From Myxococcota bacterium (lineage in GTDB: Bacteria; Myxococcota_A; UBA9160; UBA6930), in NCBI GenBank assembly GCA_028277885.1, contig JANQFK010000022.1, positions 176,052 through 240,051 on the forward strand: a stretch of 64,000 bases of DNA, written 5' to 3'. The translations under genes were made by a program, and so were the position numbers. Every line of letters begins with the position of its first letter. Position 1 is the first letter of the stretch. This document shows, piece after piece, positions 35,401 through 38,388 of this stretch. The notes under the pieces are model-generated. The model searched no databases. It saw nothing but the letters and a program-made list of their open reading frames with translations, and was not told the origin of the DNA.

Positions 35401-38388
35401 CCCGATCGGGCCGAGGACTGGGCCGCGCTCGTCCAGGACCTCGCGGATCCGGGACCCCTCCCCGTGGACTGGCTGCACCTGTGGAGCGCCGCGCCTCCCG
35501 GGGACGCGGTGGAGGCGCTCGACGGCCTCGCCGCCGAGACCGAGCTCGGCTTCCACGCGCTCCTCGGTCTCGGCCAGGCGCTCGCCGGCCAGGATCCCGA
35601 CGCTCCGCTGCACCTGCGCGTGGTCGCGAGCGGCTCCCAGCAGGTCGGCGGCGAGGACCTCGCGGTGCCGGCGCGCGCGCTCGCCCGGGGGCCCTGCCGA
35701 GTGCTGCCCCGGGAGCTTCCGGGCCTGCTCGCCCAGCACGTGGACGTGGACCGTCGTGCCGGCGACGAGGCCGAGCTGGCGGCGCGCCTCGAGTCCGAGC
35801 TGCGCGTCGCTCCCGAGGCCGCCTGCGTGGCCTGGCGGGGCGACCAGCGCTTCGTGCAGCGCTTCGAGCCGCTGCCCCTCGCGCCCGCCCCGACGCCCCA
35901 TCCGAGCCTGCGCGAGCGCGGCGTCTACCTCGTCACGGGAGGCCTCGGTGGGCTGGGCCGCCTGGCCGCGGGCCACCTTGCCGAGTCGGTGCGGGCGCGC
36001 CTCGTCCTGGTGGGCCGCCACGGACTGCCGCCCCGGGAGCGCTGGGCGGAGTGCCTCGCCGAGGGCGACGGCGCCACCGCCCGGGCGATCCGCGGCGTCC
36101 AGGCCATGGAGGCGGCCGGCGCCGAGGTGCTGCCCGTGGCGGCGGACGTGAGCGACCGGGACGCCATGGAGCGGGTCGTGGCCGAGGCCCGGGCGCGCTT
36201 CGGGCCGATCCAGGGCGTCGTCCACGCGGCGGGAACCCTCGACGACCAGCTCGTGGTGGCCAAGACGGCCGCCTCGGCGGACGCGGTGCTGGCTCCGAAG
36301 GTGCGCGGAAGTCTCGTTCTGGATCAGGTGCTTCGCGACGAACCCCTCGACTTCTTCCTGATGTACTCCTCGATCTCCGCCATCGCGGGCCTGCCCGGTC
36401 AGATCGACTACACGGCCGCGAACGCGTTCCTCGACGCCTTCGCGAGCCACCGCGCCCGGCACGACGGTGGCGCGAGCCGCTCGCTCGCCTGGAGCGCCTG
36501 GCAGCAGGTCGGCATGGCGGCGGACCGGGCGGAGGAGCTCGGCCTCGCCGCGAGCCGCCCGGCGGAGCTCCCGGCCCCGGCCCATCCGCTGCTCGACCGC
36601 TGCCTCGCGCGGGATGCGGCGCGCACCGCCTTCGCGTCGGACATGGGGGTGGCGGACCGCTGGGTGCTCGACGAGCACCGCCTGCGCGGCGGGGTGCCGC
36701 TGCTGCCGGGCACCGGCTTCCTCGAGCTCACGCGGGCCGCCTTCGAGAGCCCGCCCCAGGACCGCGTGGTGGAGATCCGCGACGCGCTCTTCCTCGCGCC
36801 GTTCCCCGTGCCCGAGGGCGAGCGTCGCGAGATCCGCGTCGAGCTGCGCGGCGGCCCCGACCGCGCCGCGTTCAGCGTGACGAGCACGCCCGACGCGGCG
36901 GACCCCGAGGCCGTGGTGGAGCACGCCTGTGGCGAGATCGCCTACACCGACGTCCACGCGCCCGGCGTCTGCGACCTCGAGGCGCTGCGCGCCCGCTGCG
37001 GCCGGGTGGAGGAGGTCGAGGGCCTGCGCTTCCAGCAGCACCTCGCCTTCGGGCGGCGCTGGGACGTGCTGCGTCGCGTGCACTGGGGGGAGGGCGAGGC
37101 CCTGCTCACCCTCGAGCTCGCGCCGGGCTTCGCCGAGGACCTCGAGGAGTACCTGCTGCACCCCGCGCTCCTCGACATGGCGACGGCCGGCGCCCAGGCC
37201 CTGGTGCCGGGCAACGAGGACGAGCAGGCCATGTTCATCCCGGTCTCCACCGCGGAGCTGCGGCTGTGGCGGCCCCTCGAGCAGCGCATCTACAGCCACG
37301 TGCGGTTCCGCGGCGTGCCCGAGGGCGCCGGCGAGGATTTCGCGGGCTTCGACGTGACGATCCTCGACGACGGCGGGCGCACCCTCGCCAGCGTGGAGGG
37401 CTTCGTGCTGAAGCGCATCGACGACCCCGCCGGCCTGGATCCGCTCGACGCCGTGCGCGAGGCCGTGGTGCGCCGCGCGGTGGGGGGCGAGGCCGAGGCG
37501 GCGGGAGCGCGCAGCGGGGCGCCGCCGGTGCTCGCCCATCTCGACCAGGCGATCCTGCCCGCCGAGGGTCTCGACGCGCTGGACCGGGCCCTGGCGGTGT
37601 CCGGGGTCCCGCAGCTCGTGGTCTCCTCCCTCGAGCTCGAGGCCTGGATCGCGGCGGTGACGGCGCCGCCGGAGCCCGCCGCCCGGGAGCCGGCGAGCCG
37701 CGAGGTCGAGCTCACGCCGGACCTGCTGGCGGGGCTGCGCGGCATCGAGGCCACCCTCGAGACCCACCCCGCGGTGCTGCGCGCCGCCGCCATGGCGTTC
37801 GAGGACCGCCCGGGACAGCGCAGACTCGCCGCCTTCCTGGTCCACGACCCGGACCAGGACGCCACGGTGAGCGAGCTGCGCCGCCACCTGCGCAAGTCCC
37901 AGGCCGAGAGCTGGATCCCCGCGAGCTTCGTGGAGCTCGACGAGCTGCCCGTCGGGACGGACGGCGAGCTCGACCGCCGCGCGCTGCCCGACCCCTTCGG
38001 CTCCAGCAGCGAGGACGTCGCGCCCCGCACCCCCACCGAGCAGGCCCTCGCCGAGGTGTGGTGCGAGGTGCTGGGCCTCGAACGGCTCGGCGTCCACGAC
38101 AACTTCTTCGACCTGGGCGGCCACTCGCTCCTCGCCATGCGCGCCATCGCGCGCATCGACAGGCGGCTCGGCGTGAAGCTCGACAACGCGATGATGGTGC
38201 TCCAGACCCTCGAGCAGATCGCGGCGGAGTGCGACCAGCGCCTGGGCACGGGCGCGCCCGCGCCGCGGGAGCCTGGCGAGGGCACGCCCGCGGGGCCGCC
38301 CTCCGACCCGCAGTCCGAGAGGCAGCCCGCCGAGCCCCGCAAGGGCCTCGGCAGCCGCCTGCTACGCGCCGTGAAGCGCGGCCGGTGA
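32473..38388 (+). CDS. type I polyketide synthase, single reducing module: KS-AT-KR-DH-(vestigial adenylation C-subdomain)-PCP
   Basis: Track ORF 32455..38388, with ATG 32473 preferred (MDDPGAHESAIAIVGMAGRFPGA). Domain motifs are listed in the sub-features below. No thioesterase domain. Confidence 0.95.
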   Translation: MDDPGAHESAIAIVGMAGRFPGARDVDAYWRNLRDGVESIRRFEAAELEAEGVSAASLADPHYVRAGAPLDDMELFDAGFFGLSPLDASILDPQHRHFLECCWEALESAGHDPQRFPGSIGVFGGSGHNAYLPYNLLTNPELLAKVGFFLLRHTGNDKDFLTTRVSYCFDLRGPSVNVQTACSTSLVAVHLAGQSLLAHECDMALAGGVTVELPHRRGYVYQEGEILSPDGHCRAFDADAAGTVFGSAAGVVVLRRLADALEDADPILAVIRGSAINNDGAGKVGYLAPSVDGQAEAISEALAVADVPAASIRYVEAHGTGTAVGDPIEIAALSQAFADAPRGGCAIGSVKTNIGHCDTAAGVASLIKVVQALRHGELPPSLHYRAANPAIDFASSPFTVNASLQAFPAGEGPRRAGVSSLGVGGTNAHVVVEEAPARAPSAPATGWQVLPVSARSPGAVQAATDRLADHLRRHPDENLADVAWTLQTGRRAFAERRVAVGRSAAELIDALESEDGERLRAGRAPETARTVAFLFPGGGAQHPGMGRGLYESEPVYREQVDAGLALLEPDHREAIRRLLLPAAGEEEAAALEFERPSLQLPALFLTELALARLWMSWGVRPAALAGHSMGENTAACLAGVFRLEDALALVSLRGRLFERVPAGGMLSVPLPAAELEPLLGEGLDLGAVNAPDLCVASGPLHALVALEARLRERDVESRRIRIAIAAHSAMLEPILAEWSEFLSGLPLRAPEIPFVSNVTGTWIRDEEATDPAYWVRHLRSPVRFADDVATLFEEPQRVLLEVGPGRTLTSLARASAACAPGHAALVSLRHPEQDTPDPLFVRRVLGDLWAAGVEIDWRAVQGEGVRHKQPLPTYPWEHQRHWIEPGRAAPASAGEAGGAGTELRKRPDVADWFSQPVWHRQPLAAGPACESVVVLGEGGRLDEALGRRLREGGGRVVQVTAGDRYERLAADRYRVKPDRAEDWAALVQDLADPGPLPVDWLHLWSAAPPGDAVEALDGLAAETELGFHALLGLGQALAGQDPDAPLHLRVVASGSQQVGGEDLAVPARALARGPCRVLPRELPGLLAQHVDVDRRAGDEAELAARLESELRVAPEAACVAWRGDQRFVQRFEPLPLAPAPTPHPSLRERGVYLVTGGLGGLGRLAAGHLAESVRARLVLVGRHGLPPRERWAECLAEGDGATARAIRGVQAMEAAGAEVLPVAADVSDRDAMERVVAEARARFGPIQGVVHAAGTLDDQLVVAKTAASADAVLAPKVRGSLVLDQVLRDEPLDFFLMYSSISAIAGLPGQIDYTAANAFLDAFASHRARHDGGASRSLAWSAWQQVGMAADRAEELGLAASRPAELPAPAHPLLDRCLARDAARTAFASDMGVADRWVLDEHRLRGGVPLLPGTGFLELTRAAFESPPQDRVVEIRDALFLAPFPVPEGERREIRVELRGGPDRAAFSVTSTPDAADPEAVVEHACGEIAYTDVHAPGVCDLEALRARCGRVEEVEGLRFQQHLAFGRRWDVLRRVHWGEGEALLTLELAPGFAEDLEEYLLHPALLDMATAGAQALVPGNEDEQAMFIPVSTAELRLWRPLEQRIYSHVRFRGVPEGAGEDFAGFDVTILDDGGRTLASVEGFVLKRIDDPAGLDPLDAVREAVVRRAVGGEAEAAGARSGAPPVLAHLDQAILPAEGLDALDRALAVSGVPQLVVSSLELEAWIAAVTAPPEPAAREPASREVELTPDLLAGLRGIEATLETHPAVLRAAAMAFEDRPGQRRLAAFLVHDPDQDATVSELRRHLRKSQAESWIPASFVELDELPVGTDGELDRRALPDPFGSSSEDVAPRTPTEQALAEVWCEVLGLERLGVHDNFFDLGGHSLLAMRAIARIDRRLGVKLDNAMMVLQTLEQIAAECDQRLGTGAPAPREPGEGTPAGPPSDPQSERQPAEPRKGLGSRLLRAVKRGR
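32500..33765 (+). other. PKS ketosynthase domain
   Basis: TACSTS (Cys codon 33016-33018), EAHGTGT and NIGHCDTAAG. Confidence 0.9.
34060..34959 (+). other. PKS acyltransferase domain
   Basis: FPGGGAQHPGMG and GHSMGE (Ser codon 34354-34356). AAHS occupies the position where HAFH or YASH specificity motifs are usually found. Confidence 0.85.
35917..36504 (+). other. PKS ketoreductase catalytic subdomain (a structural subdomain probably begins at about 35257)
   Basis: YLVTGGLGGLGR, LDD motif in HAAGTLDDQ (B-type), and YTAANAFLD. Confidence 0.85.
36580..37422 (+). other. PKS-type dehydratase (double hotdog) placed after the KR
   Basis: HRLRGGVPLLPGTG (HxxxGxxxxP) and HPALLDM...Q. Confidence 0.8.
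37732..37992 (+). other. vestigial adenylation-domain C-terminal subdomain
   Basis: IEATLETHPAVLRAAAMAFEDRPGQRRLAAFLV...IPASFVELDELPVGTDGELDRRALP. Glu (37966-37968) sits where the A10 Lys (PxxxxGK) is expected. No N-terminal adenylation core is present upstream. Confidence 0.65.
38023..38244 (+). other. PCP-type carrier domain
   Basis: FFDLGGHSLLAMR (Ser codon 38125-38127). Confidence 0.85.

Follow-up and report, generated by a model that had tools for sequence, protein, structure and literature searches.

In non-ribosomal peptide synthetases (NRPSs), the C-terminal subdomain (Asub) of the adenylation (A) domain moves the peptidyl carrier protein (PCP, or T domain) between active sites, and studies of natural recombination report that Asub and its interface with T strongly tend to be left undisturbed (PMC8097286). 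A non-catalytic Asub-like fold is known from keto-acid-activating NRPS modules such as StsA (PDB 6ULW), where this pseudo-Asub is a split motif, with ~30 N-terminal residues and ~70 residues between the ketoreductase (KR) and T domains, beside a real A domain (PMC10510592, PMC7923214). Glycopeptide NRPSs retain the remnants of a lost module, namely an X domain, which was exapted, and an extension of ~120 residues near the thioesterase (TE) (PMC8949500). NRPS modules that have no A domain of their own and are loaded in trans are also known (PMC12400406). The exosortase-A-associated genes include a ligase (TIGR03098), hydrolase 1 (TIGR03100) and hydrolase 2 (TIGR03101); the main text of Haft 2006 does not mention these ligase or hydrolase genes (PMC1569441). 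Here we analyze a type I polyketide synthase (PKS) gene that ends in an Asub and a PCP, encoded in a 64,000-nucleotide stretch of a Myxococcota bacterium genome (assembly GCA_028277885.1, contig JANQFK010000022.1, positions 176,052 to 240,051; hereafter the window).

The PKS carries ketosynthase (KS), acyltransferase (AT), KR and dehydratase (DH) domains, followed by a linker, Asub and the PCP, and two genes for proteins of the alpha/beta-hydrolase fold, Hy1 and Hy2, lie directly downstream. In our reading, to which we give a probability of about 0.7, the protein bears a dead NRPS-type Asub that is still attached to its own PCP, the PKS having replaced everything upstream of the A8 helix. The original prediction, made by a model from the sequence alone, had described a vestigial Asub fused to a PCP-type carrier at this place and had derived both from an acyl-CoA ligase and carrier of XrtA-type loci. 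The observation itself was confirmed, and its interpretation of the origin proved only partly right.

The Asub segment and its carrier

The tail of the PKS was compared with protein families and structures. Pfam AMP-binding_C (PF13193, gathering score 24.5) matched aa 1764-1832 with 28.7 bits in the whole protein and with 31.3 bits (E 4e-7) in the tail alone. The tail also gave one contiguous NCBIfam alignment to NRPS A-T junctions, with 107.7 bits (E 1.3e-31) to PRK05691, and matched SolG, MxcG and EntF. An AlphaFold2 model of the 185-aa tail, based on an alignment of 21 homologs, had a pLDDT of 93.1, and its best Foldseek matches were NRPS A-PCP structures: DhbF (5u89, E 4.7e-15), SrfA-C, EntF and LgrA. 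When Asub alone was superposed in Foldseek, the rmsd was 1.3-1.9 Å over 82-90 columns to Txo2 (6p1j), PheA (1amu), SyAstC and benzoate-CoA ligase. Sequence and model together confirmed the segment, far above chance, as a true C-terminal subdomain of the ANL type, with a predicted intact Asub fold. Asub and PCP occupy the last 10% of the PKS gene.

To place this tail among its relatives, we used an alignment of the tail with metagenome fragments to scan one genome per GTDB species, and mapped domains on 84 fetched loci by tblastn. The string KS-AT-KR-DH-Asub-PCP occurred with near-constant spacing in the window and in 29 loci (28 from GTDB genomes and one, L003, from a metagenome), which we call DH-type. 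The A8 hinge and beta-hairpin (GRxDxQVKIRGxRIE, with the hairpin QVKIRGxRIE) are present in canonical junctions and were absent from the window Asub and from all 30 DH-type tails; the retained portion starts at the helix after the A8 hairpin. In the window, the residues GLRGIEATLE are encoded from 37732 on. The A9 Tyr-Met and the A10 Leu-Thr-x-Asn were also lost, and the structural Gly, the Asp-Arg and the LPxP residues were kept. The catalytic A10 Lys was found in 3 of the 30 tails, as compared with all 71 canonical A-T junctions of the same data set; the column otherwise held Ala (5), Ser (5), Glu (4), Arg (4), Gln (3), Thr (2), Asn (2), Val (1) and Asp (1).

In the window, the A10 position is Glu1838, encoded exactly where the original prediction had placed it. 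That prediction was right about the replaced Lys and incomplete about the loss as a whole, as the A8 beta-hairpin is gone as well. Its statement that no adenylation core (Acore) precedes the segment also stood: PF00501 had no match in the PKS protein, the DH and a linker come before Asub, and tblastn of the 64-kb window with two Acore queries matched nothing except the Asub piece itself. With no core, no A8 hinge or hairpin and Glu in place of the A10 Lys, Asub is, as far as sequence and model tell, unable to adenylate; "vestigial" is the right word for its catalysis and the wrong one for its fold.

One way to rescue adenylation would be a split domain, in which Asub and a core from another gene would still load the PCP together, acting in trans. 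Trans-acting A domains do exist in NRPSs (PMC12400406), and in many relatives a ligase-carrier module for loading lies upstream. However, these upstream modules have a complete Asub of their own, with the Lys, and the A10 Lys is gone from 27 of the 30 DH-type tails and the A8 hinge and hairpin from all of them. Because the window also encodes no core, this explanation is largely refuted, and we give it next to no chance. The upstream loading module of the relatives is itself absent from this window. A phosphopantetheinyl transferase (PPTase) was likewise not found in the window by tblastn with the PPTase of locus L001; in several relatives, a PPTase gene adjoins Hy2. Since 64 kb held no match to an adenylation core or a PPTase, starter loading and PPTase functions must be encoded outside the window.

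The carrier is of the PCP type, as the original prediction had also held. PP-binding (PF00550, cut-off 20.8) matched aa 1863-1924 with 52.8-56.1 bits, and in Pfam scans this was the only carrier of the PKS. Scanned alone, it matched, with the exception of one match at E 0.027, only NRPS-type models, which included the NRPS-like alpha-aminoadipate reductase besides NRPSs. The GGHS motif with Ser1891 was invariant, and P1847 of the LPxP motif was invariant among DH-type tails.

The best match in both sequence and structure was thus the canonical NRPS A-T junction of EntF, SrfA-C, DhbF and LgrA, which has the same fold, the same order of elements, the LPxP motif and GGHS. It differs from the window in having Acore, the A8 hinge and hairpin and the A9 and A10 catalytic residues; in the window, a PKS DH lies upstream, and the PCP serves a PKS. 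The pseudo-Asub of StsA is likewise non-catalytic and lies between KR and T, but the window Asub is a contiguous piece of 84 aa in a protein without an A domain, that is, a real Asub that lost its core; 6ULW was absent among the 50 Foldseek matches listed. The glycopeptide remnants are a precedent for the retention of parts of a lost module. They differ in their NRPS host, in their position next to the TE and in that the A-domain-like remnant has no attached carrier (PMC8949500).

Distribution, origin and conservation of the Asub-PCP unit

Most DH-type loci were from Gemmatimonadota; the others were from Myxococcota, Acidobacteriota, several orders of Gamma- and Betaproteobacteria, and Verrucomicrobiales. 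The closest relative of the window PKS, with 76% identity in KS, was that of a Myxococcota locus (L006). Wherever the downstream sequence was readable, Hy1 followed the DH-type PKS, except in L012, where the only matches lay on the opposite strand, and Hy2 usually followed Hy1. The PKS, Hy1 and Hy2 were the only conserved neighbours across these loci. A sister architecture was found in ~12 loci, among them L034 from the isolate Desulfoluna butyratoxydans and L001 and L002 from metagenomes: a hybrid PKS-NRPS that ends in a condensation (C) domain, Acore, Asub and PCP (a C-A-T terminus), followed by Hy1 and, mostly, by Hy2. The original prediction had proposed to inspect what precedes the shared C terminus in homologs; it was KS-AT-KR-DH in the 29 other DH-type loci and C-Acore in the sister loci.

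Two broader searches were made. A word-indexed homolog search, which returned almost only short fragments and did not recover the PKS of the window itself, found metagenome fragments with the architecture PF14765+PF13193+PF00550. A search of 1.84 billion representatives with a profile of the tail gave 162,539 matches, dominated by multi-module NRPSs with summed scores; this number reflects no more than homology of the tail to the A-T junction, which is ubiquitous, and is not a count of the DH-type clade. In the literature, we found no description of a PKS that ends in DH-Asub-PCP or of a PKS-Hy1-Hy2 trio, in a search whose coverage leaves out most subscription journals.

We constructed a neighbour-joining tree, with 100 bootstrap replicates, for the stretch that runs from the A8 helix through the PCP. 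The DH-type tails formed one split, with a bootstrap of 74/100, which is modest for ~175 columns. The nearest canonical sequences were L026, followed by hydrolase-linked C-A-T termini, L034, L028 and L002 among them. The most distant sequences were the upstream loading ligase-carrier modules of the relatives. The DH-type tails also have in common the derived characters of lost catalytic motifs and new clade-specific residues, and these comparisons showed KS-AT-KR-DH-Asub-PCP to be one old clade that is present in several phyla.

The termini of the sister architecture (L001, L002, L019, L028, L034, L039, L042, L045, L049 and L058) are the closest intact relatives and resemble that of the window in several ways. 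The same two genes lie directly downstream, L1919 and Q1921 of PCP helix III are shared, and several have the same basic motif at the C terminus. In contrast to the window, they keep the C domain and a complete, apparently active A domain (A10 Lys in 12/12), and so would add an amino acid, which the window PKS cannot do. On the evidence of the contiguous A-T junction alignment, the carrier matches, the LPxP linker and these C-A-T relatives with the same hydrolase pair, the Asub-PCP unit is, by its sequence, NRPS-type. Recombination that replaced everything upstream of the A8 helix would fit the known tendency to preserve Asub and its interface with T (PMC8097286).

The original prediction had instead proposed that an XrtA-type stand-alone acyl-CoA ligase with its acyl carrier protein (ACP), fused or paired, lost its core to an inserted KS-AT-KR-DH, Asub being kept to dock the carrier to the hydrolases. 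The downstream genes are homologous to exosortase-A-associated hydrolases 2 and 1, the window has a PEP-CTERM-type context, and Asub, when scanned alone, reached 45.5 bits with the acyl-CoA ligase model FadD12, a little more than with NRPS models (SolG, 41.6 bits). However, TIGR03098, the ligase of the XrtA set, reached only 19.1 bits in that scan, rank 25 of 64, against a cut-off of 592. The carrier, the contiguous Asub-LPxP-PCP alignment and the intact C-A-T relatives all speak for an NRPS source, and in the tree the ligase-carrier modules lie farthest away. We consider descent from an XrtA ligase very unlikely.

A locus in a Polyangia metagenome-assembled genome (MAG) (L032; DASXQB010000188, 7310-17081) has the order C-A-T, Hy1 and then KS-AT-KR-DH-linker-PCP. 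In its PKS, the conserved helical linker, QVVVSSLDLARW, is joined straight to an NRPS-type PCP without Asub, and no hydrolases follow this Asub-less carrier. As a speculation from a single example, L032 could represent the arrangement before the fusion. Another locus (L004, 10001-11436) encodes a protein of 337 aa, P0022, that consists of the last ~60 aa of a DH, the linker, Asub and the PCP, with Hy1 next to it and no PKS upstream, where we found an opposite-strand short-chain dehydrogenase/reductase (SDR) and unrelated genes. This truncated DH-tail-Asub-PCP is either the product of a degraded locus or a stand-alone carrier. Three other candidates for a stand-alone Asub-PCP (P0040, P0064 and P0001) were rejected: in assemblies prone to frameshifts, gene calling had cut them out of larger C-A-T or PKS genes.

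An alternative is that Asub is a passive relic, an evolutionary leftover that only keeps DH and PCP apart and has no function of its own. Its decayed catalytic motifs are consistent with such a relic, as is the PKS of L032, which has a plain linker and no Asub. In 25 full-length orthologs, however, the mean pairwise identity of Asub was 0.44, higher than that of DH (0.39), psiKR (0.30), the inter-domain linkers (0.22-0.37) and the C-terminal spacer (0.11). In six ortholog pairs with unsaturated dS, the dN/dS of Asub was 0.05-0.14, in the same range as KS, AT and KR; the pairs window/L006 and L020/L025 were excluded, as their dS was saturated or biased at ~96% GC3. New near-invariant residues specific to the clade have arisen (T1804-V-S-E, R1810 and F1848), and Asub was lost in none of the 29 other loci across several phyla. 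By these measures, purifying selection acts on Asub as strongly as it does on KR or DH, which indicates that it is kept for something and is not junk. We therefore judge an inert spacer to be unlikely. Because it is conserved under strong selection in ~30 related genomes of several phyla, Asub has probably been retained as a structural part.

Downstream hydrolase-fold genes and locus setting

Hy1 scored 107 bits against TIGR03101 (cut-off 202.75) and Hy2 scored 111 bits over the full length of TIGR03100 (cut-off 168.45). The two downstream hydrolase-fold genes announced by the original prediction are thus present, and, with both scores below cut-off, Hy1 and Hy2 are best described as related subfamilies of exosortase-A-associated hydrolases 2 and 1, respectively, and not as members. 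The ATG of Hy2 overlaps the stop codon of Hy1. For the second gene, a detail needs correcting: the reading frame listed at 39255-40145 proved to be an Arg-rich shadow, whereas the true gene occupies 39202-40095. The ORF at 32295-38402 is likewise an Arg-rich shadow frame of the PKS gene, typical of DNA with 75% GC. Where these two shadow ORFs had tblastn matches in other loci of high GC, the matches reflect shadow frames there rather than homologous proteins. The exact 1977-aa PKS and both downstream proteins are present in the NCBI record, so the gene calls match.

The nucleophile elbows of the two proteins differ. In Hy1 (G-L-R-x-G), the residue at the nucleophile position was Arg in 34 of 35 orthologs and Lys in the remaining one; with these residues at the elbow, Hy1 is probably not a hydrolase. 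In Hy2, Cys occupied this position in all 33 orthologs, which suggests an acyl-thioester intermediate. A distant homolog of Hy2 was found within a fused alpha/beta hydrolase of 611 aa on a plasmid of Azospirillum brasilense (L085; NZ_CP059452.1, 201705-220259), where its neighbours are an ACP, an acyl-CoA dehydrogenase, an amino acid-[ACP] ligase, a DUF1839 protein and a GH2 glycosidase. The Hy2-type hydrolase family thus has another carrier-protein-linked setting. L085 was the outcome of a tblastn search of plasmids with Hy2 for a canonical XrtA locus, and was set aside in that respect as unrelated.

The window lies in an exopolysaccharide gene cluster. It encodes a PEP-CTERM-associated CAAX-type protease (TIGR03008; 20540-21277; 96.8 bits, above cut-off), a DltB-like MBOAT protein (2637-4109; 165 bits, below cut-off) and XrtA-type GT4 glycosyltransferases. 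No exosortase family matched among the window ORFs scanned. By its gene content, the window appears to be a PEP-CTERM-type/exopolysaccharide context, and the association with XrtA-type loci in the original prediction holds on the strength of the hydrolase homologs, the TIGR03008 protein and the glycosyltransferases. Compared with the exosortase-A-associated set, the homologous hydrolases and the context are alike; the differences are that both hydrolases fall below the cut-offs, that there is no TIGR03098-type ligase and that the carrier, a PCP of the NRPS type, terminates a PKS. The window proteins are singletons in a collection of 15 billion proteins. ManA has its nearest homolog at 58% identity and its named homologs, from MAGs of Myxococcales or Deltaproteobacteria, at 42-44%, which points to a deep lineage without cultured members, probably related to Myxococcota.

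Two further elements of the PKS recur in the relatives. In an alignment of orthologs, the linker between DH and Asub has a conserved element (37525-37662, aa 1691-1736) with the consensus AIxPAEGxxAxxRxL...QxVVSxxxL, and a second AlphaFold2 model gave the linker three helices with moderate confidence (pLDDT 76-85). This segment may be a docking or dimerization element. The same element is found in the Asub-less PKS of L032 and in P0022. The basic motif at the C terminus recurs in ~20 of the 30 DH-type loci and in several C-A-T loci with hydrolases (L002, L034, L039, L042 and L049), and is a candidate docking or membrane-binding helix. The features are listed in Table 1.

Table 1. Positions in the window of the PKS gene, its domains and motifs, and the two genes downstream.
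Feature	Position	Strand	Evidence
Type I PKS gene, 1977 aa, KS-AT-psiKR-KR-DH-linker-Asub-PCP-tail	32455..38388	+	Translation, Pfam, NCBIfam
KS domain, aa 16-390	32500..33624	+	PF00109 240 bits, PF02801 142 bits
AT domain, aa 539-841	34069..34977	+	PF00698 150 bits
psiKR, aa 947-1105	within PKS gene	+	Pfam domain order
KR domain, aa 1156-1350	35920..36504	+	PF08659 187 bits
DH domain, aa 1377-1659, C-terminal of KR	36583..37431	+	PF21089 52.5 bits, PF14765 86.7 bits
DH-Asub linker, aa 1660-1762, with conserved helical element at ~aa 1691-1736	37432..37740	+	Ortholog alignment, AlphaFold2
Asub (vestigial adenylation C-terminal subdomain), aa 1763-1846, 84 aa, one contiguous piece	37741..37992	+	PF13193, AlphaFold2, Foldseek
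PVGTDGE (degenerate A10)	37948-37968	+	Sequence
Glu1838 codon GAG at the catalytic A10 Lys position	37966..37968	+	Sequence
ALPDP	37981-37995	+	Sequence
LPDP, NRPS-type LPxP motif at the start of the A-T linker, L1844-P-D-P1847	37984..37995	+	Sequence; motif described in PMC8097286
NRPS-type PCP, aa 1863-1935, Ser1891 at 38125-38127, helix III TLEQ	38041..38259	+	PF00550
FFDLGGHSL	38104-38130	+	Sequence
C-terminal basic amphipathic tail (candidate helix) GLGSRLLRAVKRGR, aa 1964-1977, after a low-complexity spacer	38344..38385	+	Motif recurrence
Hy1, alpha/beta-hydrolase fold, hydr2_PEP type, Arg at the nucleophile elbow (G-L-R-L-G)	38399..39205	+	TIGR03101, PF12146
Hy2, alpha/beta-hydrolase fold, hydr1_PEP type, Cys nucleophile (G-L-C-S-G)	39202..40095	+	Translation, TIGR03100

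Possible function of the retained Asub

In the course of events that we favour, the terminal A-PCP of a hydrolase-coupled hybrid PKS-NRPS would have been the source, and recombination would have left the Asub-T unit whole. The native LPxP linker would still join Asub to the PCP, with KS-AT-KR-DH and the helical linker now upstream. The PKS would extend a starter, reduce it and dehydrate it on the PCP, to give a 2-enoyl or 3-hydroxy acyl chain. Hy2 could then take over this chain as acyl-S-Cys for release or transfer in an exopolysaccharide or PEP-CTERM pathway, with Hy1 as its non-catalytic partner. Asub itself is most likely a structural handle of the PCP, either giving stability through packing of the LPxP motif or presenting the PCP to its partners. 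In support of a docking role, Asub-PCP termini are very tightly linked to the Hy1 gene that immediately follows them, and no hydrolases come after the Asub-less PCP of L032.

A role within the PKS is an alternative that we regard as possible, if somewhat doubtful: Asub could position or swing the PCP among KS, KR and DH, or aid a dimer architecture together with the helical linker. The PCP, as sole carrier, has to reach every PKS domain, a conserved helical element precedes Asub, and moving the PCP between active sites is what Asub does in NRPSs (PMC8097286). Against such a role, the A8 hinge that drives the rotation of Asub is gone, and the PKS of L032, with the same linker, copes without Asub.

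More speculatively, and with a fairly low probability, Asub, the TLEQ of PCP helix III and the C-terminal basic helix might together have been exapted as a dedicated recognition module for a new kind of off-loading in trans. In this scheme, Hy1 as a pseudo-hydrolase adaptor and Hy2 as an acyltransferase of the alpha/beta fold with a Cys nucleophile would move the lipid products of the PKS or PKS-NRPS to an exopolysaccharide or PEP-CTERM target. L1919 and Q1921 of helix III were common to DH-type carriers and C-A-T carriers with hydrolases, and were not found in other NRPS carriers.

Several points weigh against the reading of a dead Asub kept on its own PCP as a structural handle. With such modest support for the split, the tree resolves the proposed origin only weakly; taken together, the hydrolase-linked carriers were not monophyletic (0/100), and L026, the canonical sequence nearest of all, has no linked hydrolases and is a C-A-T feeding a KS. 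Because patterns of PCP motifs served to gather the loci and similarity to the query served to rank them, the residues "shared" by the PCPs are partly an ascertainment effect. The association of Asub with Hy1 is weakened as evidence of docking, since every A-T terminus has an Asub anyway. Helix III of the PCP (L1919 and Q1921) and the C-terminal basic helix are docking candidates equally as plausible as Asub, and the basic helix could be the real docking element. The PKS of L032 indicates that PKS chemistry does not need Asub. Finally, the product chemistry and the roles of Hy1 and Hy2 are deduced from motifs only.

If the recognition scheme were true, it would tie the exosortase-associated hydrolase 1 and 2 genes to carrier-protein chemistry. 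The PKS of the window would be a natural fusion, in which the junction between PKS and NRPS carrier falls precisely on the A8 boundary, with the Asub-T unit kept whole over long evolution. Such a fusion supports the idea from recombination studies that Asub-T is a unit to preserve, and suggests a fusion point for engineered PKS-NRPS hybrids. It would also mean that a catalytic subdomain can persist under strong selection after losing every catalytic residue. Taken together, the loci define a widespread trio: a PKS or PKS-NRPS that ends in Asub-PCP, a putative pseudo-hydrolase with Arg at the elbow, and a hydrolase-fold protein with a predicted Cys nucleophile. Its occurrence in exopolysaccharide/PEP-CTERM-type loci of Gemmatimonadota, Myxococcota, Acidobacteriota, Proteobacteria and Verrucomicrobia may provide a handle on the unexplained exosortase-associated hydrolase 1 and 2 genes.

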